A stretch of DNA of 64,000 nucleotides from Opitutia bacterium (GTDB lineage: Bacteria > Verrucomicrobiota > Verrucomicrobiia > Opitutales > Opitutaceae), in assembly GCA_947478395.1 (NCBI GenBank), contig CANJVR010000007.1:1-64000 (forward strand). Direction: 5' to 3'. The position numbers and the translations under genes were made by a program. The notes under the pieces were generated by a model. It had not been told where the DNA came from. It did no database searches and saw only the letters and a list, made by a program, of their open reading frames with translations. This document shows, piece after piece, positions 6,170 through 49,693 of the stretch (position 1 is its first letter; each line of letters starts with the position of its first letter).

Positions 6170-9100
6170 CTACAGGTCGAACGTCGTCGTGAAGATAAAT
6201 GTGCGAGGATCGATCACGCGGAAGGTGTGTGGCTGGCCGTTGGGATAGGCGCCGACCCCCTGCAGGTGGGCTTTGGACTCTTGGATATTTTTCACGTTGA
6301 GCTGGAAGCGGGCGCGAATCTTGTCGCGGAAAAGCCGGGTCGTGTAGGTCGCGAAGCCGTCGAAATACGCGTGCGACTTGTCCCAGATCGGGCGATTGGG
6401 ATCGAGCTCGGTCGCCTGGGTGATGTCGCCGTTGACGGGGACGCCGTAATAGCCGATGGCGCCCTTGTCCTCCCACCGCACCGCGCCACCGACACTCATC
6501 CGCTTCAAGTGTACATTCTCGAACATTCCCGCCAAGCGGTAGCTTGTATTCAGGTTGAAGTGCCACTCGCGGACTTGGGGGCGGGACTTGCCTTCAGTGA
6601 CCTGGGCGAGACGCAGCGGGTTGATCACGTTGCCAGTCAGGAAGGCGCGCGGCGTGCCGGAGCCCGCCTGGGGCACGTCGCCGTTGTAGCCCGTGTCGAG
6701 CCACTTGGTGCCCGTGCGCGGGTCGATGATTGTCTCCCAAGTCGGCAGGCGAAACGCGAGCCACTCGGGAATATTCGGGGAGAGATTGGCATCCATCGAC
6801 ACGGAGCGCGTGAGATTCGCGCGCAGGGTCAAGTTGTTGGTCGGGTTGAAGCTCAACTCGTATTCGTTACCCTGCGCCTTCACGTCGGAGGTCTCGGTGA
6901 CGGTGATGCCGTTCGCGGTGAGCGCGGTGAAATATCCTTCTGGCAGTTTCATAACGTTGGCCACCGCGGTGGTGATCTGGGCCGCCGTCAGCGTACCATC
7001 GGGATTCAGCCAGGCTCTCGCCTGCCGTTCCAGCGAGATGGCATCGGAGTTACCGCCGAAATTCTGGAAGTCCATGCGCCCGGCGCGCGTCGCGAGCACG
7101 GCGCTCTGGCCGGCGCGCGAATTGATTTGGCTGGTTTCATACTTGTTCGCGCGCAGGACAAACTTGTTTCCGAGGTTGATCGTGATCCCGTAGTCTTTGC
7201 CGACCGATGAGGGATTAGGGAGGTCCTTCAACGTGATGCTGATTGCCGGGGTCTCGGGCCGGAAGCTGTCGGACTTGTTGTAGTAACCGGTCAAACCGCT
7301 GAGCAATTCGCCGAACCAACGCCGGGCTCCGCTCGAGGAGCGCTGGCGCTCGACAAAGCTCCAACCCCGGAAAGGCTTCACCACGACGCCGGAAGTGTTG
7401 GTCTTGCCCGAGCGCAGCGCCCAATCGCCGCGCCAGCCGTTCATCAACGCTTCGTCGTAGTGCCAGCCGTCGGCCGTAAGCCGCGTGGGCGCGCCGTTCT
7501 TGTCGCGGTTTTCGTCCTCGCGCTTGCCGAACGTGAAAACGGCCCGGTCCTGAAACAGGTTGCTCTGGAGCATGGCGCCCTTGGTCTTGATCAGGTTCAG
7601 TCGGGAGCTGGTGCCCTCGCTGACCGCCGAATGGTCGAGGATGGCGGGGTCCGCGACCCAAGTGCCCGCGCCGCCATTGGCGAGCGGGTCGAACCAATTA
7701 AACGTATACCTGCCCAGGTTATACTGACTCGCGCCGTAATCCACGTTCTGGCCCTGATTGTCGCCCACGTAGAAGTGGTAGTAGGGGCGGGTCGAGATGG
7801 GCGCGACTGTGCCGCTTTGATTGGCCTTTGGCTGCCCGGCCGGCGCATAAATCGGGTTGTCCAGTACGTTCACGTCGCGGAAACGGCGCGTGAACGACTT
7901 TGTCTTGCGCTCTTCATAATAGCCGAGGACTTGCTGGCGCCCGATCCATTTGGTCCAGCCCGTGTCGTTGGAAAAATCGAGGATGTAGGCGCCCTGCCCA
8001 CGATAGCCGTCACGCTGGCTGGGATTCTCGCTGGTGGGCGGTTCGCCGGCGCCGATGTAGGGGCGCCCAAAATAGGGATTCGTCCGACCGTCCAGCAGTT
8101 TGAGGTTGGGGTCGATGTAAAGGTAGTAGCTCGCGCTGGTCGCGGACGCCTGGCCGATGATGTTGCGCGCGGTGCGATCGGCGTCTTCCCGCTGCCAGGC
8201 GAACTGCACCGCCAGGCGATTGTGCTCCGTGTTGAGCAGAAATTGTTCGAGTTCCACGGTCGAGGTTGCGACCACGTCCTTGATGGTGTTGTTGCCGCCG
8301 AGATTAATACTCGAATAATCGTAGACCGACTTGCTCGAAACGCCGGCGAGCGTGGAAAAGAGGGGCCGCCCCGTGCGCACCGGTTCCGCGATCGACTCAA
8401 GCATGCGGTCGTTGCCGGCGGTGTTGTTGGGTCCGTTCGTCGCGGTCGCGGCCGGCTTGCGACCGATCTGCCAGAGCTGGATGCCGTTGTCGACATAGAG
8501 GATCGGCTGGGCGAAGTTCTGGTTGCCGAGGCCGGCGGGATTGGTCGCGCCCAGCACGGTGGTGACGCCATTGACCGTCACGGAGCTGGCAATGGGATCC
8601 CACGCGGGGCTGCCCAGGGTTTTCCAATACGTGACGGCATCGCGCGGGGTGACGGCATTCGCGCGGGTGCCGACGCCGCTGTAGGAACTGAAGGCCGCGC
8701 GGAGACTGGTGCTTTGAAACGGCTGAAATCGGAGCATGGCGTTGAGCCGGCGGTTTTCGAAGCCGGACGGCTTCTGCCGATACTCGTCGTGCTGGTAGAC
8801 CGCGCTAACTCGGAGGGCGAGTTTGCTGCGGAATATGGGCCGATTGAGGTCGAGCGACGTGCGCCAGCCGCCGATGTCATCGAAGCGAAATTCTGCGCTC
8901 GTGGTTTCGCGCGAGACGTTCGCTGTAGACGCGACTAGATTGACTGTGCCGGAACCTTCGCCGAGGCCGAAGATGCTCGAATTGGGCCCGCGGCTGATTT
9001 CGACGGCGTCGATGTTGCTGGGGTCGATCGGGACGCGACCAGAGGTGGCGAAGCCGCTGAGCGAGATGTTGGCGGCCCCCATGCCGCGAATGCGATTTGC

Positions 9101-9631
9101 GCCCTGGGGGTTGTTTTGGATTTGGTCGGTGACCATGCCGTTGCGATCCACGTCGAACGCCGTGTAATTGCCCGTGCCCTCGGTGTTGGATTCGTAGGCG
9201 AAGATGTCGTTGATATCGAGCATCGCGAAGTCCTGCATCTGCGCCTTGGTGACGACGGAAATTGACGAGGCGATGTCCTCGAGCTTCGTGTTTAGCCGTG
9301 TGCCCGACATCGTGCTGGTGGCGTAGTAGCCAGTGTTGACTTCCTTCACCTCGAACGGCGAAAGCTGCACGGTGTCCTCACCGGTTTTCGGCCCGGCGGC
9401 CGTTGCGACCGCTGCGCTGGCGATTTTCGCCTCGTCCGCCCGCAGCGTGGCGACTTCGTCGGGATCGAGTTTACCATTTTTATTCTTGTCGTATCTCGCC
9501 AGATCGCGGGCCGCCTGGGTGGCGTCGGGCGAGGCATTGGTCAACTCGGCACGAAGTGAGATGGCTGCGGTCAGGGCGGACAACTGCAGCAGCACGAACA
9601 CGGTCTTGGAGACATGGGGGTATAGGTTCAT
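6170..9631 (-). CDS. TonB-dependent receptor (Opitutales type) with N-terminal EF-hand-like loop
   Basis: Start MNLYPHV with signal peptide; TVQLSPFEV, GYYATSTMSGTRLNT, plug motif NIDAVEISRGPNSSIFGLG; C-terminal PRTFIFTTTFDL. Confidence 0.9.
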   Translation of the reverse strand: MNLYPHVSKTVFVLLQLSALTAAISLRAELTNASPDATQAARDLARYDKNKNGKLDPDEVATLRADEAKIASAAVATAAGPKTGEDTVQLSPFEVKEVNTGYYATSTMSGTRLNTKLEDIASSISVVTKAQMQDFAMLDINDIFAYESNTEGTGNYTAFDVDRNGMVTDQIQNNPQGANRIRGMGAANISLSGFATSGRVPIDPSNIDAVEISRGPNSSIFGLGEGSGTVNLVASTANVSRETTSAEFRFDDIGGWRTSLDLNRPIFRSKLALRVSAVYQHDEYRQKPSGFENRRLNAMLRFQPFQSTSLRAAFSSYSGVGTRANAVTPRDAVTYWKTLGSPAWDPIASSVTVNGVTTVLGATNPAGLGNQNFAQPILYVDNGIQLWQIGRKPAATATNGPNNTAGNDRMLESIAEPVRTGRPLFSTLAGVSSKSVYDYSSINLGGNNTIKDVVATSTVELEQFLLNTEHNRLAVQFAWQREDADRTARNIIGQASATSASYYLYIDPNLKLLDGRTNPYFGRPYIGAGEPPTSENPSQRDGYRGQGAYILDFSNDTGWTKWIGRQQVLGYYEERKTKSFTRRFRDVNVLDNPIYAPAGQPKANQSGTVAPISTRPYYHFYVGDNQGQNVDYGASQYNLGRYTFNWFDPLANGGAGTWVADPAILDHSAVSEGTSSRLNLIKTKGAMLQSNLFQDRAVFTFGKREDENRDKNGAPTRLTADGWHYDEALMNGWRGDWALRSGKTNTSGVVVKPFRGWSFVERQRSSSGARRWFGELLSGLTGYYNKSDSFRPETPAISITLKDLPNPSSVGKDYGITINLGNKFVLRANKYETSQINSRAGQSAVLATRAGRMDFQNFGGNSDAISLERQARAWLNPDGTLTAAQITTAVANVMKLPEGYFTALTANGITVTETSDVKAQGNEYELSFNPTNNLTLRANLTRSVSMDANLSPNIPEWLAFRLPTWETIIDPRTGTKWLDTGYNGDVPQAGSGTPRAFLTGNVINPLRLAQVTEGKSRPQVREWHFNLNTSYRLAGMFENVHLKRMSVGGAVRWEDKGAIGYYGVPVNGDITQATELDPNRPIWDKSHAYFDGFATYTTRLFRDKIRARFQLNVKNIQESKAHLQGVGAYPNGQPHTFRVIDPRTFIFTTTFDL

Positions 9632-9732
9632 GGGAATGACTCTTGGGTTTGATCGGTTAGCAAAAAGAACGGCATGAGGTCGCTGCCAAAGGGCACACCC
9701 GTCGTTAGTGCGGCAGGCGGCAGGAGGAGGGG

Positions 9733-9920
9733 CAAAGGGGTCGGGTCTGGGGTGAGACGACGACCAACGTGGGGAAGGCAAAATACAAGACACGCGCTTT
9801 TCTGTCCCGCAACTATATTCACGGGCCCGCCGACGCAACCCTTCACGCGCACCGACCTTTCGTGGCCGAACCATCTGCACGCCGGAGTTGCACGGCGCAT
9901 AGTAAAACCCGACCCCTTTG
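9733..9920. repeat. Segment bounded by a 14-bp perfect inverted repeat CAAAGGGGTCGGGT / ACCCGACCCCTTTG
   Basis: IR arms at 9733-9746 and 9907-9920; the GGGGTC core is shared with the adjacent 190-bp unit. Confidence 0.7.
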
Positions 9921-9922
9921 GG

Positions 9923-9976
9923 GCGTTCGGAGGGGGTCAGGGCGTTCGGAGGGGGTCAAGCGTTCGGAGGGGGTCA
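9923..9976 (+). repeat. Three tandem copies of the 17-mer GCGTTCGGAGGGGGTCA
   Basis: Exact copies at 9923-9939, 9942-9958 and 9960-9976; the third begins the 190-bp unit. Confidence 0.95.
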
Positions 9977-10149
9977 GGTTGCCCATTTCCCACTCCCGAC
10001 CAACGACGGGCGGAGTGACCCCGAGGAAATTCTGCGTTGATGGGTCGCTTGAAAACCATTCGAAGACGCGGCCTAAACGTTCCGACCGCCGCTTCGCGGA
10101 GATTCTCCGGTCAATTGGGGAAATGGGCAACCTGACCCCTTTCTGGCTT
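9960..10149 (+). mobile_element. 190-bp non-coding MITE/REPIN-like unit, copy 1
   Basis: 22-bp perfect subterminal IR GGGGTCAGGTTGCCCATTTCCC (9970-9991 / 10118-10139); differs from 11919-12108 at one position seen (10045 T vs 12004 C). Confidence 0.85.
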
Positions 10150-10420
10150 TTCCGAGAAAGTGGGAACTATCAAGACGGCCAAGGGTTACGAGAACTATGA
10201 GCTTCTTTACACCGGAGTTTTTGCTACCGGCCTCAACTTAACCTATCGGGAGTTCAGCCCAGAGGGGTTGGTGCGAGTCGCGTTTTTTCAGAGCCTAACC
10301 TACGAGGTAGGGGCGAAGAGTATCACGTTCAAGAAATTTAGAATCTCCGTCGAAAAGGCCACGTCTGAATCAATCACCTTCACGGTTCTCTCCGACGGCT
10401 ACGATGTGAAAAAAGATTAG
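10150..10420 (+). pseudogene. 3' fragment of a hypothetical protein gene, truncated at the repeat
   Basis: Protein-like frame ..YELLYTGVFATGLNLTYREFSPEGLVRVAFFQSLTYE..ITFTVLSDGYDVKKD* runs open back into the repeat with no convincing start. Confidence 0.6.
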
Positions 10421-10540
10421 ACGGCCCTCGAACCCGAAAGGGTTTTGGCGAGTCCACGTCCCGATGAACACGTGCTGCCGCGTAAATTCCCCACACAGCA
10501 GGGACAGAAGGGACAGAACTCCGCCGGCGATTACGCCAAC

Positions 10541-10707
10541 GCGGCCCATCAACGCAGAATTTCCTCGGGGTCAGTCCGCCCGTCGTTGGTCGGAAGTGGG
10601 AAATGGGCAACCTGACCCCCTCCGAACGCCCTAAACGTTCCGACCGCCGCTTCGCGGAGATTCTCCGGTCAATTGGGGAAATGGGCAACCTGACCCCTTT
10701 CTGGCTT
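10541..10707. mobile_element. Rearranged copy of the 190-bp unit: inverted left arm fused to direct right arm
   Basis: 10541-10631 is the reverse complement of the left arm (2 substitutions relative to copy 2); 10630-10707 equals the right arm; the middle ~23 bp are absent. Confidence 0.9.
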
Positions 10708-10846
10708 TTTCCTTGTTTTACAAGCTGGCACTCGCCGACGTATCTAAACATTAACCACATTTGCCCGCTGTTCATTTTCCCGCACAGACAGCTGTCATTA
10801 TCAACCGTGGGTCTAAAGATCCTCGATGCTTTAACTGATAACCAAT

Positions 10847-11299
10847 ATGATCGACTCACGATTCACAGAAAAAATCGAAATGGAGATCAACTCCGAAGAC
10901 AGGCGTAAGATTTTTCGCCAAGGTTGCTGTTACCATTTCGCACTCAGAATCCATTTGGACAGACTTCCAACTTCGCGCGTAAAAAGGATTGTGGACCGGA
11001 TCAATGGTTCAACCCATGCTTGCCTACTTACCACGAGAGACGAATACGTCGACATCGATGGGGTTTACTCTGAAACAGATTTTATCTCATCGATTCAAAA
11101 AAGATTCGGGATGATCGAGTATGAAATCGAGGAATTGGAGATTCCTTGGCTGTTCGATAAAATTTCCGAGAGGGAAATGCCGGTAGAACTCACGAGGGAG
11201 GTATATCGACTGGCTCTTTCAGAGTTCGACACCCGTCACGAATTCGCATCGCTCAAGTTAGTTTCACCGTTACCTGTGACCGCTAAAGATCAGCTGTAA
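10847..11299 (+). CDS. Hypothetical protein, AT-richer than host, probably foreign
   Basis: 150-aa ORF with GCCYHFALRIH...HAC...YVDIDG motif; alternative start near 10880. Confidence 0.6.
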   Translation: MIDSRFTEKIEMEINSEDRRKIFRQGCCYHFALRIHLDRLPTSRVKRIVDRINGSTHACLLTTRDEYVDIDGVYSETDFISSIQKRFGMIEYEIEELEIPWLFDKISEREMPVELTREVYRLALSEFDTRHEFASLKLVSPLPVTAKDQL

Positions 11300-11500
11300 G
11301 TGAAAACGTGCCACCGCAAAGTCCTACATGCACCTAACGGAATAGTCTTCCGAGGACTCCCTTCACCATTACCAACAAAATCAAGAGTGTGCCCGCGATG
11401 AGTAACCATTGGGTAAGGTTGAAAGAGTGGAGGCCCAACGGAGTGAATTGGAGCAGGAGCAGAATGCCCCAGATAAGTCCGAGGAACATGCCGAACGCGA

Positions 11501-11915
11501 TCATATGTCATCCTCTTTCTTCGTTAACTCCGCCGTGACCGCAGAGTCTGGCTTTCGCCGGGGTTTTCTTGGTTTGGTCTCAATTGGTGGCTTTTCGAGA
11601 GGCTGCGCGGCTAGCATTTCACCGATACCCGACGTCAGGCGCCGTTGGTCGTCGGCGTAGTGGTCAGCGGTGATCTGGATATTCGCGTGCCTGAGCAGGC
11701 GGGAGGCCGCGTAGATGCCATATTTTTCCGTGATGAGACGGCCGTATTCCTTGCGGAGGGTATGCAGCGGTTTTCCCTTGGGCACACCATGCGAGCAAAG
11801 CCATTCATTGAGCTTCCAAAACTCCTTGGAAGCTCGGTAGTGGAAGTAGGTCGTGCCCATCCGAGGCGCCACCTTGGATTCAACAACAAATTCACCCGTC
11901 GCGGTCTTCTTGTAT
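11501..11915 (-). pseudogene. C-terminal fragment of a tyrosine recombinase (phage integrase family)
   Basis: LHTLRKEYG (HxLR) and LRHANIQITADHY (H...Y) catalytic motifs; the frame stays open upstream (YKKTATGEFVVESKVAPR) up to the repeat at 11916. Confidence 0.85.
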
Positions 11916-11918
11916 GGG

Positions 11919-12108
11919 GCGTTCGGAGGGGGTCAGGTTGCCCATTTCCCACTCCCGACCAACGACGGGCGGAGTGACCCCGAGGAAATTCTGCGTTGAT
12001 GGGCCGCTTGAAAACCATTCGAAGACGCGGCCTAAACGTTCCGACCGCCGCTTCGCGGAGATTCTCCGGTCAATTGGGGAAATGGGCAACCTGACCCCTT
12101 TCTGGCTT
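11919..12108 (+). mobile_element. 190-bp non-coding MITE/REPIN-like unit, copy 2
   Basis: Direct repeat of 9960-10149 with the same 22-bp IRs. Confidence 0.85.
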
Positions 12109-12168
12109 CCGTTCCCCAATGTGCGAACCAAAGTCGCGATACGCTGATTTCCGATTATGCCTTTACCT

Positions 12169-12597
12169 ATGAAAACCTGCCGATTCCTCCTCTGCTCCTT
12201 TATCGCGGCCTTCGCCTCCTTCGCGCATGCGCAGGAAAAGCGCGCCGCATTGTCGGACGAACAAAAGACCTTCCTCAGCCAATACGAAGCCGTGCGCGCC
12301 GGTTTGGCGGCGGACGATTTGACCGCCACCAAAAAAGCGGCGGCAGCGGTTACGGCCGTTCTGGCTACGGACAGCGCCAAGAAGATCGCCTCGGCGGACT
12401 CGATTACGGCGGCGCGCGAGGCATTCAAGGCGCTGAGCAAACAAGCCGTCACTACGGCGGCGGGCCAATCCGGCTACTACCACGCGCATTGCCCCATGGT
12501 GCCGAATGACGAGGGGAACTGGGTTCAGACTTCAAAGAAAATCAGCAACCCGTATTTTGGAAAATCGATGGCCACCTGCGGCAGCATCGAAAACTGA
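12169..12597 (+). CDS. Periplasmic DUF3347-like putative metal-binding protein
   Basis: Signal peptide; AREAFKALS, HCPMV...GNWVQ...ISNPYFGKSMATCG. Confidence 0.8.
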   Translation: MKTCRFLLCSFIAAFASFAHAQEKRAALSDEQKTFLSQYEAVRAGLAADDLTATKKAAAAVTAVLATDSAKKIASADSITAAREAFKALSKQAVTTAAGQSGYYHAHCPMVPNDEGNWVQTSKKISNPYFGKSMATCGSIEN

Positions 12598-12602
12598 CCG
12601 TC

Positions 12603-13670
12603 GTGAACCTGCGCCTCTGGCCCCTCCTCGCCGCACTCGCTCTCGCGGCGCTCCATTTCCCGGCATTAGCGGAAACCCGCATCGCGGGTGCCGCTCAGCC
12701 GCAGCTCGCTGCGGCGTCAGACGGCCGGGTTTGGCTCGTCTACGGCCAGGGGCATGACGTGGCGGTTGCCCGGTCTGATGACAGCGGCAACACCTTCCTG
12801 CCGCCGAGCACGGTGGCAACCTTGCCTCAGCTCATGCTCGGGATGCGGCGAGGACCGCGTATCGTGGCGCGCGGCGATACGATCACCGTCACGGTCGTCG
12901 CGCCCGAATTGCTCGCGTATCGTTCGACCGATGCGGGGCGGACGTGGATCGGACCGGTGACCGTCAACGATGTCGCGGAATGCACGCGGGAGGGTTTGCA
13001 CGACCTCGCCCTAAGTCCTAACGGCGAACTGTTCGCCACCTGGCTCGATCTCCGTAACGGCAAGATGGAACTGTGGGGCGCTTCGTCGCGGGACGGCGGA
13101 GCGACTTGGGCAAAAAACCAGCAAGTGTATAAATCCCCCGGGGTTTCGATTTGCGAATGCTGCCACCCGACGGCGCTCTTCGACGCGGATGGCAATCTTG
13201 CCGTGATGTGGCGGAACTCCATCGACGGATCGCGCGACATGTGGATGACCACGCGGGCGAAGGGCGCAACGCAGTTCGCCGCCGCGCACAAGGTCGGCCA
13301 AGGCACTTGGCAGCTGAACGCCTGCCCCATGGACGGCGGACGAATCGTAGCGCTCGGCGGCGGGAAGTTTGGTGCGATCTTTCAACGCGCGGGCGAAGTA
13401 TTCTACGTTTCCGATACCGGCGCGGAAATTTCCCTCGGCAAGGGCAAGCAGCCGATTGCGATGCTCGAAGATCGCGAGCCGCTTCTGCTGTGGCAGGACG
13501 GTTCCGACTTGGTTTCCGTCAAAGGGAGCGGGCATGCGCCAACCAAGCGCGCGACTGATGCGCGCTTCGCGGTAGTCGCGCTCATGCCGGGCGCTCGAGG
13601 CATCTTGCTCGCTTACGAACAAGGACCCGCGAAAGAGAAGCAGCCCGGAATCGTGGTCGAGCGCCTCTAG
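12603..13670 (+). CDS. Secreted BNR/Asp-box (sialidase-fold) protein
   Basis: Asp-boxes SDDSGNTF, STDAGRTW, SRDGGATW; CECCHP and CPMDGG motifs. Confidence 0.8.
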   Translation: MNLRLWPLLAALALAALHFPALAETRIAGAAQPQLAAASDGRVWLVYGQGHDVAVARSDDSGNTFLPPSTVATLPQLMLGMRRGPRIVARGDTITVTVVAPELLAYRSTDAGRTWIGPVTVNDVAECTREGLHDLALSPNGELFATWLDLRNGKMELWGASSRDGGATWAKNQQVYKSPGVSICECCHPTALFDADGNLAVMWRNSIDGSRDMWMTTRAKGATQFAAAHKVGQGTWQLNACPMDGGRIVALGGGKFGAIFQRAGEVFYVSDTGAEISLGKGKQPIAMLEDREPLLLWQDGSDLVSVKGSGHAPTKRATDARFAVVALMPGARGILLAYEQGPAKEKQPGIVVERL

Positions 13671-13745
13671 CCGGCGAACGGCAAACTGCTAGGCGCGATC
13701 GAACGGGGTCAGGCTGTACCTATTTCCCGCAGGATTCATCATTCG

Positions 13746-14924
13746 CTACGGGCCTGCGATCGACCGCAACCCGTGCGCGAGACGGCCGATGCCCTCGGCG
13801 GCGGTTTCCTTTTGCAGGGCACCGTAGGCGACGCGCAGGTGGCACCCGTGCTCCAGGCCGAAGGCGTTGCCCGGAATCACCGCGACGCCGTGCTCACGGA
13901 TCAAGCGCGTCGCCATTGTCAGCGGCGGATGCGGCGAGTCGACGCGGAGCAGAAAATAAAACGCGCCGTCGGCCGGAGGAATTTTCGCGATGCCCTCGGC
14001 CGCGAGCGCGGCGAGCTCGCGCTGGACCAGCGCGCGCACCTCGGCCAAGGCGCGGAGTTTTTCGCGCACGAAGGGCGTGCCAGCGGTGAGTGCACCGACC
14101 GCGGCGTGTTGGGACACGACGGGCGGACAGATCATCAAGGTGTCCTGAATTTTTCGCAGCGCGGCCTCGAGATTTTCCGGAAACACCATCCAGCCGATGC
14201 GCCAGCTCGCGAAACCGAACGCCTTTGACATCGAGTAGAGCGAGATGGTGTGCGGCGCACTCCCGGGAATCGAAGCGACGGAAAAATGCCGCGCGCCGTC
14301 GTAAGTGAACTGCTCGTAGGCTTCGTCGCTGAGATGAAACAAACCCCGCTCGGCGCAGAGGGCATTCACGGCGCGTAGCGCCGACTCCGGATAGACTGCG
14401 CCCGAGGGATTGTTGGGCGAAACGGTGACGATCGCCCGCGTGCGCGGTGTGATCGCGGCGCGCAGCGCGGCGAGGTCGAGCTGGTAGTCGGCGTCGGTCG
14501 GCACGAGCACGGGAACGCAGTTCGCCATCGTGACCGCCATCTCGTGGTTGAAATAATACGGTACCGGCAAAATCACTTCGTCGCCGGGATCGGCGATGGC
14601 GAGGAGCGCGGCCATGAAGGCGTTGTTGCCCCCGGCGGTGACCATGAGGCGGTTGCCGGACGCGGGGCCGGTGGTGATTTTATTTTCGGCGGCGAGCTTG
14701 CGCGCGAGCGCGTCGAGCAGCGCGGGGATGCCGGCGACCGGTTGGTATTTGTGATTCGCGGGATCGGCGGAGAAACCGGCGGCGGCGGCGAAAGCCTCGG
14801 GCGGCGGGGCGTAGTTAACCACGCCCTGCCCAAGCGAGATCGTGCCCGGATGCGCCCGAATGAGATCGGCGATGACTGGAATGATCGGCGACTGGACAGC
14901 GGAAAGGCGACGGGACTCGTGCAT
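13746..14924 (-). CDS. PLP-dependent aminotransferase, class I/II
   Basis: ISLGQG, SPNNPSG, SDEAY, SMSKAFGFASWRIG; start re-assigned to MHESRRL. Confidence 0.9.
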   Translation of the reverse strand: MHESRRLSAVQSPIIPVIADLIRAHPGTISLGQGVVNYAPPPEAFAAAAGFSADPANHKYQPVAGIPALLDALARKLAAENKITTGPASGNRLMVTAGGNNAFMAALLAIADPGDEVILPVPYYFNHEMAVTMANCVPVLVPTDADYQLDLAALRAAITPRTRAIVTVSPNNPSGAVYPESALRAVNALCAERGLFHLSDEAYEQFTYDGARHFSVASIPGSAPHTISLYSMSKAFGFASWRIGWMVFPENLEAALRKIQDTLMICPPVVSQHAAVGALTAGTPFVREKLRALAEVRALVQRELAALAAEGIAKIPPADGAFYFLLRVDSPHPPLTMATRLIREHGVAVIPGNAFGLEHGCHLRVAYGALQKETAAEGIGRLAHGLRSIAGP

Positions 14925-18083: not shown

Positions 18084-18123
18084 TGCGCGGCTAGCCGTAT
18101 AAATTTTCCTGGGGCGGTTTGGG

Positions 18124-18193
18124 GTGGCGGCACGCGTCGCTGCCTGCCGGGTGCGGCGTCATCGTTTCGGCAGGCAGGGACGCCTGCCGCTAC
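18124..18193. repeat. REP doublet (GTAG-type), family GTAGCGGCAGGCGTCCCTGCCTGCC
   Basis: Inverted pair between convergent genes; same family as 39948-40017. Confidence 0.8.
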
Positions 18194-18395
18194 ACCTTGC
18201 CGGCGTTGAACCGCGCTTTAGCTCCAGAAGGGTGGCTCACGAAGAGGAATAAAGAATTCCTCCTCCTGCGTCTGAATCGCCCGCGCGCAATTTGGCGCAT
18301 GGCGACTTCGCGGTAGGCCGCGAAACCCTCGTGCTTTTTGGGGCAAAATTCTGATCCCTTTTCCCCTTCCGGCCAAGCGTGGCGCCGCCCGGCGC

Positions 18396-39799: not shown

Positions 39800-39947
39800 G
39801 GATTGGCTTCGGAATACCCGGAGAATTTTGACTGCTGATGAGATTCGCGATCGGGCGAATCCACGCGCACCCCCTGCGGCTAATCGCCTTCGGCCCCTCG
39901 GCCTGAAGCGGGTGACCCCGGCCACGATTAGTTTAGCCGCTTAAGAC

Positions 39948-40017
39948 GTAGCGGCAGGCGTCCCTGCCTGCCCGACCGAACCCGCCGAACCCGGCAGGCA
40001 GAGACGCCTGCCGCTAC
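39948..40017. repeat. REP doublet (GTAG-type)
   Basis: GTAGCGGCAGGCGTCCCTGCCTGCC...GGCAGGCAGAGACGCCTGCCGCTAC. Confidence 0.85.
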
Positions 40018-40225
40018 CCACAACGGTCATGGAAAAAATTAAACCGCTCTGGTCGCGGTGAATTCCTCCGCCGATGAGGGGACGCGACGCCTTCAATGCG
40101 CAGGCGATCCGTCGAAGCCACCGATCAAAGATTTTCTCCCATCGGTAAAATCCGATTCGCGGTTCACTCCCGGTTCCGGGGTTTCGTTTTTCCGAACCCG
40201 CGCCCAAACGACCCGCCGCGTTGCC

Positions 40226-44508: not shown

Positions 44509-45570
44509 TCACGCGGCGTTCCTTTTTTTCCACGACTCGACGATCTGGCGGATGGTTTCTTCCAGTGACTGCGTGATGTCCCAGCTCGGATAATGCGCCC
44601 GCATTTTCCGGAGGTCGCTGTAGTAGCAGATGTGGTCCCCGGCGCGGTTCTGATCGACGTAGGTGTGCACCTGCGGCTTGCCCGAAAATTTTTCGACGAT
44701 CTTGAAGGCTTCGAGGATGGAAGTGCTGTTGGCCTTGCCCCCGCCGAGATTGTAGACTTCGCCGGCGCGCGGGGCTGCGACGAAGGCCGCCATGAAACGC
44801 GCGACGTCGAGCGAGTGGATGTTGTCGCGCACTTGTTTTCCCTTGTAGCCGAACACGCGGTATTCGCGGCCCTCGAGGTTACATTTTACGAGGTAGCTCA
44901 GGAAACCGTGGAGCTCGACGCCGGTGTGATTCGGCCCGGTGAGACAGCCGCCGCGCAGGGCGCAGGTGGGCAGATTAAAATAGCGGCCATATTCCTGGAC
45001 CATCACATCGGCGGCAACTTTGCTCGCGCCGAAGAGGGAATGTTTCGACTGGTCGATGGTGAACGTCTCGGCGATGCCCTCGGCGTAGGCGGGATCGGCG
45101 TAATCCCAGCGCGTGGCATGTTCCGTCAGGGCGATGCGATTGGGGGCGTCACCGTACACTTTGTTCGTGCTCATGTGCACGAACGGCGATTCGGGGGCGG
45201 CTTGGCGGGCGGCTTCGAGGAGGTTGAGCGTGCCGACGGCGTTGGTGTCGAAATCGTCGAAGGGAATCGCGGCGGCGCGATCGTGCGAAGGTTGGGCGGC
45301 GGTGTGAACGATGACGTCAGGCTTCACCGTTTTCACGAGGGCGAGGACGCCGGCGCGGTCGCGGATGTCGAGTTCGTGATGGACGAAGCCCGGCAGTTCG
45401 GCCGCGAGGCGGCTTTGATTCCAGCGGGTGTCACCGGAAGGCCCGAAGAAGACGGCGCGCTGGTTGTTGTCCACGCCGTGAATCGTGTAGCCGAGTTCCC
45501 GAGCGAAATAGACGCAGACTTCGGAGCCGATAAGGCCGGAGGAGCCGGTAACGAGGAGGGTTTTTTTCAT
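44509..45570 (-). CDS. NAD-dependent epimerase/dehydratase (CDP-paratose 2-epimerase-like)
   Basis: [40 protein letters not shown]; start MKKTLL. Confidence 0.88.
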
Positions 45571-45831: not shown

Positions 45832-47400
45832 CTAGGTCTCGGGCACCGGGAATTCAAGCAATTGCCATTGCGCGCCGGGATTAGCGGGACGCGCGTCGAT
45901 CCGGTCGTGGGTGGCGACGAGCTCGATAAAAAGGTGGTTGCCCGGCTCGCGCGGAAATCCGCCGACGGCGAAATACAGTCGTTCCGGCGCCGCAAATGGC
46001 CCGAAGATAAGCGAGCCGGTCGAACGACCGGTGCGGTCCCACGAGCTCCACGTGCGGATCGGTGCGGCCGTGCGCAGCGCGCGGCCCGGGAAAATTCCGT
46101 CCGCTAGATATTTATCGCGGACGTCGCCGGCGACGTCGGGAACGGCGGGCCGGTAGCTCGCGGCGGCTGAGGCGGGGAGCATCCGTGCCGGCCGGCCCGG
46201 ATATTGAATCACCCAGGGAACGGGCAAAATGGGGATTTGCACCGGCACACCGCGACGGATCGCATCACAGTAGTTCTCCCAGTGGAGATCGGCAGGGGCG
46301 GGTTTTACGTGATTTGGCAGTTCGAGCACGACGGCGAGCAAGCAAAGCCCGCGGGCGGCCCACGCTACCACGCGCGGTCGCGCATCGAATTCCCAAATTA
46401 ACAGCCACGCGAGCAGGAGGCGTGGAATGAAGAAATAGGAATCGGCGTTGACGAGATCCGGCTGAGCCCACGAGTCGGGTCGCGTGCGGTACAGCACGAC
46501 GGTGGTGAAAAGCCCAAACGCGACGACGAGTTGGGCCCGTAACCACCGCCGGGGATGAGGTCGCAACGCCCCGACCAGGAGCAACGCGACGAAGCCGGTG
46601 CCGATGACGCGCTGCGCGGTCCAGGAAAGCGTGCTGGCGACGTGGGCGCCGAAGAGCGGCCAGACGACGAGCCGGCTGCTCGCGATTGTCAGCATCTTGG
46701 TGAGGCTAAATGGCTCCGGGGGTTGGGCAAAGAAGCCCGCCCCGGTCGTCTTGACGAAGTAACCTTGGATCGCCGCGCACGCGCCGGCGACGAGCAGCGC
46801 GGCGAGCGTATCGGCGTTCCGCTCACGGAGAAACCGCCAGGCAAAGAGCGGTAGAAAAAGGATGACAAAAGGCCCGCTGAGCCCGACGAGAAAAACGATC
46901 GCGAGATCGCCGAGACGTTGCGGCCACGTCGTTGGCCGGGGTAGCAAGGCTTGCAGCAAAAGGAAAAACGCGGTGATCCAGTGCAGATTGGTGATATTGA
47001 AAAAAACTTCGCCGGTGTGCGCGACGAGCGCGAAGGACAGGACGAGCCAATGCTTTCCGGGCAGGTCGCAGCGTGGCGACGCCAGGCGGAGGAAAAGCAG
47101 AAAAGTGACGAGCAGCGCTGCGCCGTTGTAGAAGGCGGGCCAGTACGCGATATCGACCGTGTGGCTTGCGAGCCAGGCGATGAGTCGCGGCAGGGTGTGC
47201 AGATAGCCGCGATAGGGCGTGAGCAACGCCCGCAGCCCGAGTTGTTCGTTTTCGAGGAGATGGACACACCCATCCTCGGCCCAGAGTTGGGGGCTGGTCA
47301 GCGCCCAGGGTTTGTGAGCGACGAGCAGCGCGATCGCGACCAAGGCAACGGCCCAGGCTGCTTTCGTCGACGCCGCGGCCGGACCGACGCTGGACCTCAA
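45832..47400 (-). CDS. Multi-pass membrane protein (WAEDG motif; putative GT-C) with truncated C-terminal soluble domain
   Basis: LWAEDG, YRGYLHTLPRLIA, EVFFNITNLHW, GLSGPF; TTG start overlaps the stop of a GT2 fragment. Confidence 0.7.
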   Translation of the reverse strand: MRSSVGPAAASTKAAWAVALVAIALLVAHKPWALTSPQLWAEDGCVHLLENEQLGLRALLTPYRGYLHTLPRLIAWLASHTVDIAYWPAFYNGAALLVTFLLFLRLASPRCDLPGKHWLVLSFALVAHTGEVFFNITNLHWITAFFLLLQALLPRPTTWPQRLGDLAIVFLVGLSGPFVILFLPLFAWRFLRERNADTLAALLVAGACAAIQGYFVKTTGAGFFAQPPEPFSLTKMLTIASSRLVVWPLFGAHVASTLSWTAQRVIGTGFVALLLVGALRPHPRRWLRAQLVVAFGLFTTVVLYRTRPDSWAQPDLVNADSYFFIPRLLLAWLLIWEFDARPRVVAWAARGLCLLAVVLELPNHVKPAPADLHWENYCDAIRRGVPVQIPILPVPWVIQYPGRPARMLPASAAASYRPAVPDVAGDVRDKYLADGIFPGRALRTAAPIRTWSSWDRTGRSTGSLIFGPFAAPERLYFAVGGFPREPGNHLFIELVATHDRIDARPANPGAQWQLLEFPVPET

Positions 47401-47634
47401 AGCGGACCGAAGCGCGCCTTGGCCCAGGCTCCGATCCAATTGATGGAATCGCGGATCATGCGTATTTTTGTTTTCTCGCTTTGCCGAACACGCGGTATCC
47501 GCGGCCTTCGATATTCCACTTTACGAGGTAGCTCAGGAAACTGTGCAGCTCGACGCCGGTGGGATTCGCTCCTTTGCGACCGCCGCCGCCCAAGGTGCAG
47601 TTGGGCAGATTGAAATAACGGCTAAGGTCTTGGA
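47397..47634 (-). pseudogene. Chimeric scar: internal epimerase fragment fused to a GT2 3' end
   Basis: 47397-47467 closely copies 48938-49008; 47468-47634 is a diverged copy of 44833-44999. Confidence 0.9.
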
Positions 47635-48937: not shown

Positions 48938-49693
48938 TCACAGGGGCCCGAAGCGGGCCTTGGCCCAGGCTCCGATCCAATTGATGGGATCGCGGATCAT
49001 GCGTACTTTTTTCCCCTCTTTGAACGAGCGGGAATTGTAGCTGATGGGAATTTCCAGCGGATGATGGCCGGTGCGGATGAGTTTCATCAACAACTCCCAA
49101 TCCAAATCAAACCGGTTGCTCGTGAGATGAATTCCATCGAGGCACTCGCGCCGGAAGACCTTGTACATCGTGAAAGGATCTTTGAGCCAGATGCCGAGCG
49201 ACGCGTTGATGAGGAAGGTGAAGCCCCAGTGCGCGCAATTGAGGACGAAAGCCTGCACGGGTTGATCATCAAATTTGCGCATCGCGAAGCCATCGCCCGG
49301 AGTGTGCCGCGATCCGAGGACAAACGTGCGTTCTCCGGCGGCCAGCGGCGCGAGCAATTTGGCGTAATCGTCGAGCGAGTATTCTAGATCCGCGTCCTGA
49401 ATGAGAAAAACATCCCCGGTGGCCCGGGCGAAGCCGGCTCGCACCGCATGGCCTTTACCGCGCGGTTTATCCTCGAGGATCAACGTGACGCGGGGGCAGT
49501 CGCGATAGGTTTCAACGATGGCGCGGGATCCGTCGGTGGAATTGCTCTCGATGAAGATGATTTCCAGTTCCCAGCCCGGCACTTGCTTGGCGACGATCGC
49601 ATCAAGGGCGATACGGAGCGTCGCCGCCTCGTTGTAGATGGGGACAACGACGGAGAGTTTTAACGGACCGGTTCGAGGGGCGGGCACACTCAT
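48938..49693 (-). CDS. GT2 glycosyltransferase, polyprenol-phosphate (DPM1/GtrB-like) type
   Basis: SVVVPIYNE, GKGHAVRAG, IQDADLEY, VLGSR, RSFKEGKK; ATGA overlap with the YfhO-like gene. Confidence 0.9.
   Translation of the reverse strand: MSVPAPRTGPLKLSVVVPIYNEAATLRIALDAIVAKQVPGWELEIIFIESNSTDGSRAIVETYRDCPRVTLILEDKPRGKGHAVRAGFARATGDVFLIQDADLEYSLDDYAKLLAPLAAGERTFVLGSRHTPGDGFAMRKFDDQPVQAFVLNCAHWGFTFLINASLGIWLKDPFTMYKVFRRECLDGIHLTSNRFDLDWELLMKLIRTGHHPLEIPISYNSRSFKEGKKVRMIRDPINWIGAWAKARFGPL

Follow-up and report, generated by a model that had tools for sequence, protein, structure and literature searches.

The described systems closest to the locus reported here are the TIRtrons and their TIRYT proteins, named by Di Nocera, De Gregorio and Rocco (2013; PMC3733652). 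According to the available text of the relevant papers, the TIRYTs correspond to subclass 2.1 of the TnpA-Y1 proteins (Quentin et al., 2018; PMC6006769) and to group 1 of the RAYTs (Bertels et al., 2017; PMC5581495), and subclass 2.1 is the second largest group, present in 14.9% of strains (PMC6006769). The same text gives the repeat consensus at the outer end as GGGG[AT][CG]A[CG] (GGGGWSAS; PMC3733652; PMC6006769) and the motifs of subclass 2.1 as NH[YF]H, FQ and Y[IV]HLNP (Table 1 of PMC6006769); as far as it goes, it reports no mobility, cut site, junction or cargo for these elements. In the literature searched we found no TIRYT activity, no biochemistry for subclass 2.1 and no description of its junction rule; the supplements of PMC3733652 and PMC6006769 could show repeat flanks.

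Several other systems share individual traits with the locus. The one-ended capture of IS91 and ISCR elements and the fragment capture of Helitrons involve an HUH enzyme, one fixed and one arbitrary end and truncated passengers, and these elements are characterized by ori/ter ends, rolling-circle copying and larger enzymes. Integron cassette arrays display a repeat-cargo-repeat layout of foreign DNA. The REP/BIME sequences of Escherichia coli and their enzyme TnpA-REP, in the available text of the study, offer Y1 chemistry, cutting away from the bound repeat, modest sequence requirements, repeat pairs amplified in tandem and an enzyme acting in trans (Ton-Hoang et al., 2012; PMC3333891). As described there, Y1 enzymes form a 5'-phosphotyrosine and carry out strand transfer (PMC3333891). 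Members of the IS200/IS605 family (IS608, ISDra2) likewise combine the Y1 fold with recognition sites set back from the ends and no target duplication, according to the accessible text (PMC3333891; PMC6006769).

The window, meaning the whole stretch of 64,000 nucleotides of DNA that was analysed, holds a mosaic of repeat units and foreign gene pieces at 9733-12110. Its parts, the host genes on either side and one nearby motif are as follows:

6170-9631, minus strand: host flank, TonB-dependent receptor gene (Plug domain)
9733-9920, no strand assigned: second GGGGTC-type inverted pair (arms 9733-9746 and 9907-9920), adjoining the unit, upstream of the TonB-dependent receptor gene
9921-9969, plus strand: left-end stutter, three tandem copies of the outer flank (10-12 nt) plus GGGGTCA
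9970-10139, plus strand: unit copy 1, with arm 9970-9991, a 126-nt non-coding spacer and inverted arm 10118-10139
10140-10153, plus strand: part of the right flank kept here, with 10 nt matching that of the site exactly, then two additional T and the CC of the site's flank
10154-10540, plus strand: cargo A, 3' end of a lipoprotein-like gene (final ~88 codons, stop 10418-10420) plus 120 nt downstream
10541-10631, minus strand: left half-unit in inverted orientation (arm 10598-10619), carrying 12 nt of the left flank at 10620-10631
10632-10712, plus strand: right half-unit (arm 10676-10697), which keeps 10 identical nt of the right flank and runs on with three additional T and CC
10713-11914, no strand assigned: cargo B, with the following three open reading frames (ORFs)
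10847-11299, plus strand: ORF of 150 aa in cargo B
11334-11504, minus strand: small hydrophobic ORF in cargo B
11501-11914, minus strand: tyrosine integrase piece in cargo B, the 3' 137 codons
11915-12110, plus strand: unit copy 3, with arms 11929-11950 and 12077-12098 and the original right flank of the site (12099-12110)
12157-12597, plus strand: host flank, DUF3347-like gene (the Pfam match is weak and under the cut-off)
13705-13728, plus strand: solo degenerate arm-like motif, 1.6 kb downstream of the mosaic

Two 190-nt direct copies of the unit (9960-10149 and 11919-12108) are 99% identical. In a third copy the left half (10541-10629) is inverted and the right half (10627-10709), in direct orientation, comes after it. 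An earlier, sequence-only reading of this DNA had already recognized the two direct copies and a rearranged third. The 22-nt arm, which starts GGGGTCAG, occurs six times in the window against none expected from 100 shuffles, and the 190-mer folds by pairing arm to arm across the unit. The same reading held that the right flanks diverge within a few bases, which proved too short: copies 1 and 2 continue with an extended T run and then CC, matching the chromosomal flank of copy 3. The left flank of copy 3 lies at 11917-11928, and 14 nt are common with the flank of the site when 11915-11916 are counted. Because all copies at the window site keep that site's own flanks, the unit seems to have multiplied where it stands and not to have moved; other units in the same genome are 79-87% identical and have different flanks.

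Both cargo blocks are AT-richer than their host and both carry genes cut mid-gene, as had been noticed from the letters. Their GC content is 0.525 in block A (0.487 in the gene piece) and 0.497 in block B, whereas the genome averages 0.614 per kb. Of a lipoprotein-like protein of ~270 aa (range ~250-280 aa), block A keeps 89 aa, which align only to residues 194-282 of a 282-aa relative (91%). A full-length copy of its gene is absent from the host genome, one weak match was obtained among 400 other genomes of the family, and its look-alike protein clusters are commonest in Pseudomonadota. The donor DNA was found neither among plasmids nor among genomes of the phylum (0/400), and the seam of block A is therefore uncertain by 2-4 nt. 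In block B, the integrase piece represents the final 137 of ~450 aa, integrases of this kind measuring 400-480 aa, is 90% identical to one of 474 aa and belongs to a family of verrucomicrobial islands. Searches with the 150-aa ORF returned no relative beyond its own record and no match in viral contigs, and the donor of block B was likewise not found as DNA. That block B has relatives and block A no good one in the family and phylum samples points to two donors.

The 190-mer is non-coding, and the sole Y1_Tnp gene (PF01797) of the genome lies elsewhere, on contig C1 (346488-347462, intact, 325 aa, P0001). It is located between arms at C1:346481 and 347559, and its last codons fall inside an arm. 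The non-autonomous unit and the HUH/Y1 partner flanked by the same arm, both postulated beforehand, have thus been located; what had been cast as an element joining its ends to arbitrary DNA belongs to a family already named TIRtron/TIRYT in the available literature (PMC3733652; PMC6006769). The C1 gene belongs to the TIRYTs of subclass 2.1, the 190-mer is made up of two TIRYT-type inverted ends without coding sequence, and the 22-bp arm is almost certainly the TIRYT end. P0001 contains the motifs NHYH, FQ and YIHLNP, and H60, H62 and Y119 are at least 90% conserved in the 104 rows compared. In its predicted model, the N-terminal part matches TnpA-REP (Z 16.5) and residues 239-325 match DnaA domain IV (Z 9.7/9.5, rmsd 2.8-3.0, 86-87 aligned). 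Pfam detected no such C-terminal domain in 104 TIRYT members, the Atlas places Bac_DnaA_C on 12% of a cluster (a weak lead), a sequence search of solved structures returned TnpA-REP only, and weakly, and Foldseek returned the Y1 domain only.

Genome-wide, 14 arms occur within two mismatches, on C1, C2, C4 and C7, with dimers on C2, C4 and C7. Derivation of the 190-mer spacer by deletion from the C1 element was rejected, BLASTN having matched the arms only. On C4 the same layout recurs, with two direct ends that share 13 nt and enclose 3.9 kb at GC 0.433, and the flank there holds an integrase lacking about 55 N-terminal residues. With one mismatch allowed, the arm is present in 2/401 genomes of the family, namely the host (G000) and G125, which carries the closest TIRYT (77%). 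The same arm also occurs at a metagenome locus that carries a TIRYT at 74%, five metagenome stretches contain it exactly, and with one ambiguous base it had no match in viral contigs.

Compared with the available descriptions of TIRtrons, the likeness comprises a Y1/HUH gene between inverted repeats, the GGGGWSAS consensus, the NHYH, FQ and YIHLNP motifs, the DnaA-like C-terminal domain predicted here, gene-free repeats elsewhere, some dimers and a low copy number. As far as those descriptions extend, the present case differs from them by its stuttered ends, by cut foreign genes at the ends and by differing alleles between populations, and its repeats are subterminal because the edge of rearrangement lies 10-13 nt outside the repeat. 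In contrast to the REP/REPIN sequences of RAYT groups 2 and 3, as outlined in the accessible literature, the arm lacks a GT[AG]G-footed hairpin and a single arm is not a palindrome. Relative to the available account of REP/BIME, the present system adds a DnaA-like domain, has a fixed offset in place of any CT, counts about 14 arms where REP sequences run to hundreds, and joins to non-repeat DNA. The ends of IS200/IS605 are described in the accessible text as two different hairpins, left and right, on the same strand, whereas here they are inverted and symmetric, the gene is present in a single copy and no clean excision-insertion pair was seen. From the general description of IS91/ISCR and Helitrons the locus departs in its two equivalent ends and its Y1 enzyme, and from integrons in its cargo cut mid-gene, its seams outside the repeat and a genome search for IntI in which TIGR02249 scored at best 76.7 bits against a cut-off of 265. 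Spacings of 558 and 1401 nt and mixed orientation distinguish the mosaic from a CRISPR array, in which short repeats alternate with regular spacers of 30-40 nt, and Rfam returned no match at E up to 1 over 9500-14000, CRISPR repeats included, in agreement with what had been concluded at first sight.

In the window, 6/7 seams lie 10-14 nt outside an arm (shared flank 10, 10, 10, 12, 12 and 14 nt), and the two right-hand seams match exactly over no more than 10 nt, so that reaching 12 requires a later change of the T run. The sole seam away from any arm is 10540/10541, the inner edge of the inverted half-unit. At other sites the shared flank is 11 nt (C1, which carries a 201-bp duplication) and 13 and 10 nt (C4). 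Among relatives, of which 68/126 loci gave no arm pair by the criteria used, stutters affect 16/113 arms against 66/21,469 random positions and 0/116 inner sides, contrasts whose significance, like that of the other offset contrasts, is overstated because the relatives are kin picked as best hits. Left out were L062 (a duplicate of L030) and three arms that were duplicates or had less than 60 nt of flank. Tandem duplications occur at 47/363 arm motifs in relatives; with two set aside for an overlap of more than 4 nt, the compatible cut position among the 45 kept is -12 in 31, -11 in 23, -13 in 15 and -10 in 12. Blunt duplications have a fixed edge 10-13 nt outside the arm in 12/13 cases, and the partner side of the 13 blunt joints shows no base preference (A4 C3 T3 G3). 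End pairs sharing 10-13 nt number 14/351 within a genome and 2/4,500 between genomes; one match was excluded, and so were a few ends lying 40 nt or less from the edge of a contig.

Purines occupy -12/-11 in 42/45 duplications (GG 17, AG 12, AA 8, GA 5), and by locus they stand at both positions in 25/25, against 153 and 144 of 237 other motifs; this bias may partly be a record of earlier stutters. The breakpoint is conserved, as the sequence-only reading had anticipated, although about 12 nt outside the arm and not at the arm itself, and its position is very probably set by the enzyme.

Lake populations carry further alleles of the site. Allele contigs were examined for 4/20 listed runs, and two of these, X9 and X14, from two other studies (other lake populations), hold cargo-free single-unit alleles. 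In X9, 9918 is joined to 11915 (depth 23.1), and in X14, 9939 is joined to 11918 (depth 14.6). The natural series thus comprises one unit, one unit with extra stutters, and three units with two foreign blocks, with one copy of the left-end stutter in X9, two in X14 and three in the window. At the single variable site, T is found in copy 1, X14 and the C4 relative, and C in copy 2, copy 3 (at 12004) and X9; comparison with the C4 relative suggests that the C of copy 3 is the derived state. Since X9 combines this putatively derived C with a joint inside a 23-nt repeat, it may have arisen by deletion from an allele like that of the window, whereas X14, with the T of copy 1, a two-copy stutter and a joint to the window overlapping by 2 nt, is not a simple deletion product. 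We infer the direction of change at the window site (gain versus loss), and cargo was probably gained there. In 40 relatives the 190-mer yielded a single arm-like match of 32 nt and nothing else; searches for an empty site in an outgroup gave none, and the DUF3347-like gene was closely matched in 1/17 congeners, in a different gene context.

We consider it rather probable that the mosaic grew in place, with the C1 TIRYT acting in trans, which would repeatedly cut about 12 bases beyond one of its ends and join this to an arbitrary free DNA end. In this process, the C-terminal domain, predicted to fold like DnaA domain IV, would bind the double-stranded arm and thereby fix the distance. The nick would fall on the strand reading flank-GGGGTCAG, in most cases just ahead of two purines and roughly 10-13 nt to the 5' side of the G run; by analogy with HUH chemistry it would leave a 5'-phosphotyrosine on the arm side, which any free 3'-OH could resolve. 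A nascent strand stalled in or just beyond the arm would yield the short stutters and the C1 duplication, a free end inside the unit the inverted half-copy, and a free end of foreign DNA cargo A and B. A fragment linked to the two ends of one unit copy would then become established at the resident unit, either through another end-joining or through homologous recombination across the 190 bp, and the order unit-cargo-unit would result. In its canonical form, Y1 strand transfer links two sites that the enzyme has cut, and joining to an uncut free 3'-OH would extrapolate from it. As the cargo genes are broken, capture is at least a by-product of the enzyme, and useful capture goes beyond the evidence of the locus; the same holds for the cassette-array-like accumulation proposed at the outset, given two broken blocks, an inferred direction and one seam off the arms.

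Whether the TIRYT ligates directly or leaves the joining to host repair we hold to be evenly balanced. In its strict form, the host version has the enzyme nick only, with template switching or microhomology joining from the 3' end on the CTGACCCC strand making the junctions; the fixed offset would be the enzyme's doing and the capture the host's, a division of labour which we regard as unlikely. Mean microhomology, which includes two multi-copy arrays, is 1.53 nt and exceeds the 0.86 nt of simulated blunt joins, as repair-assisted joining would have it, and T-run changes and 1-nt extras at several seams, together with the seam away from any arm, fit as well; yet microhomology is 0 nt in 20/45 duplications and 1 nt in 15/45. 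The pyrimidine pair on the opposite strand resembles the CT cut by TnpA-REP of E. coli in the available text (PMC3333891), but the dinucleotides listed above do not always correspond to CT there, and a strict CT rule on that strand was rejected. The same enzyme could also have worked on a reverse history, in which an adjacent integrative island was eroded to two scraps by local hops and neighbouring deletions starting from the arms and the cargo-free alleles are the end stage. Block B, as the tail of an island integrase, could be a remnant of such an island, on C4 a unit borders an integrase of that family, truncated at its 5' end, within an identifiable island, and X9 fits a deletion that retained copy 3. 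Against this, the cargo-free alleles hold no island scrap between the host genes, X14 resists explanation by simple deletion, and the blocks point to two donors; we regard erosion as improbable.

Growth in place also has to be set against explanations without a TIRYT. No contig of the examined runs spans the whole stretch and unitigs enter the repeats by at most about 30 nt, as might result from an assembly artefact or from a separate cargo circle placed between collapsed repeats. However, 8/20 listed runs, from two studies and three years, contain 92-94% of the words, block B is as deep in X2 (17.8) as the flanks (17.7-18) and nearly so in X3 (23.3, flanks 18.1-22.3), the copies differ at a site polymorphic between populations, and the seams keep to an offset seen across the family, of which an assembler has no knowledge, which makes an artefact highly improbable. 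The ends of Tn3 begin with GGGG. The unit ends share this start, which would suit a MITE of a DDE transposon whose target duplications have eroded; we give this the least credence. No Tn3-family transposase (PF01526) was matched in the genome, which is 98.8% complete, inspection of all arm contexts in it revealed Y1 as the only transposase between arms, and the arm flanks the Y1 gene in host and relatives. Abutting target duplications of at least 3 nt were found in 0/57 related elements, matches 9-14 nt out equal those of shuffles, and none is visible by eye at the window ends. The absence of target duplication noted from the sequence is thereby upheld, and the DDE insertion sequence with ordinary duplications that had been named as the counter-case did not appear in the Tn3-family search or among the arm contexts.

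For growth by TIRYT cutting and joining, the locus provides a precise prediction of the enzyme, its cognate 22-bp arm, the strand, a cut 10-13 nt outside before a purine pair, and the product. Should direct joining to free ends be true, it would constitute a route of gene gain without homology or a site on the incoming DNA, and possibly a tool for end-specific ligation; should only the nick be true, it would be the first TIRYT cut site and would explain a class of island hot spots. Only tentatively can TIRYTs be viewed as widespread sequence-blind DNA-capture enzymes, with a DnaA-like anchor, an HUH nick 12 bases outside and any 3' end as partner, and it is equally speculative that the repeat pair serves as a landing pad accreting foreign DNA without an attachment site on the cargo. 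If so, this would account for TIRYT ends at accessory-gene seams and give a function to a gene present in 192/300 sampled genomes of the host's family. The second GGGGTC-type pair at 9733-9920 is also present in the cargo-free contigs of X9 and X14; it is older than the cargo or independent of it.

The locus, flanked by a TonB-dependent receptor gene on one side and a DUF3347-like gene on the other in a host assembly of 3.3 Mb (9 contigs, 98.8% complete), is a real, locally amplified repeat dimer of the TIRYT type (Y1/HUH transposase genes between inverted repeats) with two broken foreign blocks. The two 190-nt direct copies and the rearranged third of the sequence-only reading are borne out, the left half of the third being inverted and its right half direct:

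9960-10149: direct copy of the 190-nt unit
10154-10540: cargo block A
10541-10712: rearranged copy
10713-11914: cargo block B
11919-12108: direct copy of the 190-nt unit

The 22-nt arm forming the inverted ends occurs six times in the window and not once in 100 shuffles; across the host genome, 11 exact arms and 14 with at most two mismatches are present. Since all three window copies keep the site's own flanks and units elsewhere in the genome are just 79-87% identical to the window unit, the unit appears to have multiplied in place. Back to back with it, 16 nt apart, a second inverted pair of GGGGTC type (9733-9920) sits where the receptor promoter is expected, and no cognate gene for this pair was found in the host genome. 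A lone degenerate arm lies between convergent genes at 13705-13728.

Two arms on contig C1 flank the only intact Y1_Tnp gene of the genome, whose last codons lie inside an arm, in agreement with the earlier proposal of a Y1/RAYT-like enzyme acting in trans. Its product (325 aa; motifs NHYH, FQ and YIHLNP) has its closest relatives, among named records, in Verrucomicrobiota and Opitutales assemblies, and the predicted model (pLDDT 86.7) matches E. coli TnpA-REP with a Z of 16.5 and, over residues 239-325, DnaA domain IV with a Z of 9.7. The hallmarks of subclass 2.1 (RAYT group 1) are those of this enzyme, and the subclass is equated with TIRYTs in its description (PMC6006769); TIRYTs are in turn described as genes between inverted repeats with GGGGWSAS, the gene-free repeats also occurring as dimers or clusters (PMC3733652). 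Relatives are common, with 192 of 300 other family genomes holding one (E 1e-40). The arm is restricted, among 401 genomes, to the host and G125, which also holds the closest enzyme (77%), so that arm and enzyme co-occur. The arm flanks a Y1 gene with subclass 2.1 marks and tracks the enzyme, which makes the 190-mer a TIRYT repeat dimer without a gene of its own, a known kind of element.

As had been read from the sequence, both cargo genes are cut short, which alignment to longer relatives confirms. Block A (GC 0.525) opens with the 3' end (88-89 codons) of a gene for a 250-280-aa protein whose full-length relatives have a lipoprotein-like N-terminus, and the piece is 85-92% identical to relatives (best 12 of 67 hits). 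What remains of a tyrosine integrase at the end of block B (GC 0.497) is its final 137 codons, with 90% identity to a 474-aa protein. The block A family has one weak match in 400 other family genomes and none in 400 phylum genomes, its look-alike clusters being commonest in Pseudomonadota, and the integrase family has named verrucomicrobial members; the two blocks thus probably came from different donors. Downstream of the block A gene, a short tandem repeat with a GGGACAG core (10499-10520) may be the remnant of a further TIRYT-type end of the donor.

Seams, the joints of the mosaic, were read from outside inward and measured by how much flank they have in common with the original site; stutters are tandem copies of outer flank and arm start at a unit end.

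Flank shared at the joints of the window
Two stutter joints: 12 and 10 nt
Inverted half: 12 nt
Integrase seam: 14 nt
Both right-hand seams: 10 nt

At the integrase seam, the 90% relative has Ala and the window Pro, which places the cut 12-14 nt outside the arm. All 10 aligned relatives have Arg at the block A seam, where the window has Ser, and this difference, an extra T run and the subsequent CC suggest that 12 original bases were retained and the T run then lengthened. No arm lies at the seventh seam (10540/10541). Outside the window, a 201-bp tandem duplication in the C1 element begins 11 nt beyond the upstream arm, two direct-orientation ends on C4 share 13 nt, with 3.9 kb at GC 0.433 between them, and a degenerate arm elsewhere on C4 (G000:C4:236438-236508; L004:4439-4509) has a 10-nt stutter. 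The integrase at the C4 flank is without about 55 N-terminal residues and 51% identical to the block B piece.

In relatives, 126 TIRYT loci were searched by our own criteria, yielding an arm pair in 58, none in 68, and 113 non-redundant arms. Immediate tandem stutters occur at 16/113 arms vs 66/21,469 random positions and 0/116 inner sides, and base -2 is A in 108/113. No target duplication of at least 3 nt abuts any of 57 relatives' elements, which extends the earlier reading that none is visible, and flank matches 9-14 nt out in these elements equal those in shuffles. With the motif AxGGGG[TA][CG]A as a wider set, tandem duplications accompany 36/273 motifs, or 47/363 once genome-wide copies are added. 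For the 45 kept duplications, a fixed edge at -12 fits 31, at -11 fits 23, at -13 fits 15 and at -10 fits 12, and the opposite edge falls anywhere from 1 to 375 nt inside; blunt cases are cut at 10-13 in 12/13. Purines occupy -12 and -11 in 25/25 loci vs 153/237 and 144/237 other motifs, and both positions in 42/45 duplications. Pairs sharing 10-13 nt number 14/351 within genomes, mostly local (three G057 pairs are unlinked), vs 2/4,500 between genomes (99 ends, 17 genomes), and all these offset statistics overstate independence, since the genomes are kin and were picked as best hits. A miniature of the window in G314 has two repeat dimers 179 bp apart, with about 50 nt between, sharing 13-14 nt of flank at both ends.

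The stretch is carried by lake and freshwater metagenomes; 8 of 20 listed runs, sampled by two studies in three different years, contain 92-94% of sampled words, and one of them may be the source sample. Alleles were read from contigs of four runs. One contig each in X2 and X3 extends over 10680-11946, at depths of 17.8 and 23.3 (flanks 17.7-18 and 18.1-22.3); the block order rests on assembly, since no listed piece spans the whole stretch. A cargo-free site, which the sequence-only reading had proposed to seek in related genomes, was found in X9 and X14, in the same species, as their flanks differ from the window at just 3-6 listed sites. A 3,848-nt X9 contig joins 9918 to 11915 with one unit and one left-flank copy, and an X14 contig joins 9939 to 11918 with one unit and two; X14 also has a 15-nt duplication at the right end and a loose end with C1-type flank three times repeated. 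A short X9 contig of depth 2.6 matches part of block A exactly, so cargo and cargo-free alleles may coexist there.

Stutter numbers of 1, 2 and 3 (X9, X14, window) and the absence of any island scrap from X9 and X14 make it likely, but not proven, that cargo was gained at the site rather than lost. The second rival keeps the same enzyme and reverses this history, with an island trimmed down to scraps; X9 could indeed be a deletion product, since it carries the C of copy 3, where the C4 relative suggests T as the older state, and its joint lies within a 23-nt repeat. As for chemistry, Y1 enzymes are described as cutting a single strand via a 5'-phosphotyrosine some distance from the bound repeat, leaving a 3'-OH, with strand transfer by E. 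coli TnpA-REP in vitro (PMC3333891). One fixed and one free edge are consistent with nicking some 12 nt to the 5' side of the G run, after which the enzyme would stay on the arm-side end and any 3'-OH could resolve it: stutters would come from a stalled nascent strand, the inverted half from an end inside the unit, and the cargo from an end of foreign DNA. The lack of partner-side base preference in 13 blunt joints is a weak point in favor of such joining. On its two sides block B meets opposite unit ends, one right and one left; a unit copy may have circularised it before recombination with the resident unit, or two successive end-joinings may have occurred. The chief rival, a nick by the enzyme with joining by host repair, draws on a mean microhomology of 1.53 vs 0.86 in simulated blunt joins, but 20/45 cases are without microhomology. 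Nick and joining are both inferred.

Both the element family and its repeat dimers have been published, their activity undocumented; the window adds cargo seams that obey the offset, together with alleles of this site that lack cargo. Among RAYTs, group 1 has the highest rate of duplication (PMC5581495), and a recent report calls RAYT function unknown (10.1101/2024.07.17.603846). A preprint proposed diversifying recombination by subclass 2.1 at lanthipeptide genes, where no inverted repeats were found, the causal claim being withdrawn in a note (10.1101/2020.03.09.984088). The literature searched, which included few subscription papers, nowhere describes an offset cut at TIRYT ends, nor stutters or cargo there. 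The locus makes the function of a large enzyme group directly testable; its cargo is non-functional.

Several further observations concern these repeats. The complete C1 TIRtron (G000:C1:346481-347760; L001:5482-6761), whose duplication includes the gene start as a dead copy of 34 codons, is directly adjoined by low-GC genes (0.469 over the next kb). On C4, an integrative island (G000:C4:164000-173500; L003) has an integrase 5' end cut by a repeat dimer, an HTH_17 gene and, by eye, a tRNA-like end; the 3.9-kb stretch after it holds PliI and DUF4116 genes, and beyond this stretch lie a partial second unit and next a Fic/DOC gene. The arm at C4:236438-236508 lies, by eye, between the end of a Clp-type ATPase-like gene and a DNA methyltransferase-like gene. 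Direct TIRYT-end duplicates lie 0.2-3.3 kb apart, with lower-GC DNA between, in three relatives at L279 (G094), L280 (G314) and L281 (G285), and in one TIRYT lineage (L035-L038), apparently at the same chromosomal site in four genomes, repeat dimers, both back-to-back and facing, stand on either side of the gene. A longer dimer of 271 bp on C2 (G000:C2:83357-83627; L002:5358-5628), with a diverged left arm and without cargo, adjoins a short hairpin repeat also present at window 39948-40017. An inverted pair in the window (18093-18198 / 39943-40048; 106 nt, 78%), including a 25-bp hairpin repeat, represents another small repeat family of the host genome, and a sugar-modification-like gene cluster contains direct repeats of 167 nt (44833-44999 / 47468-47634; 81%) and 73 nt (47397-47469 / 48938-49010; 92%).
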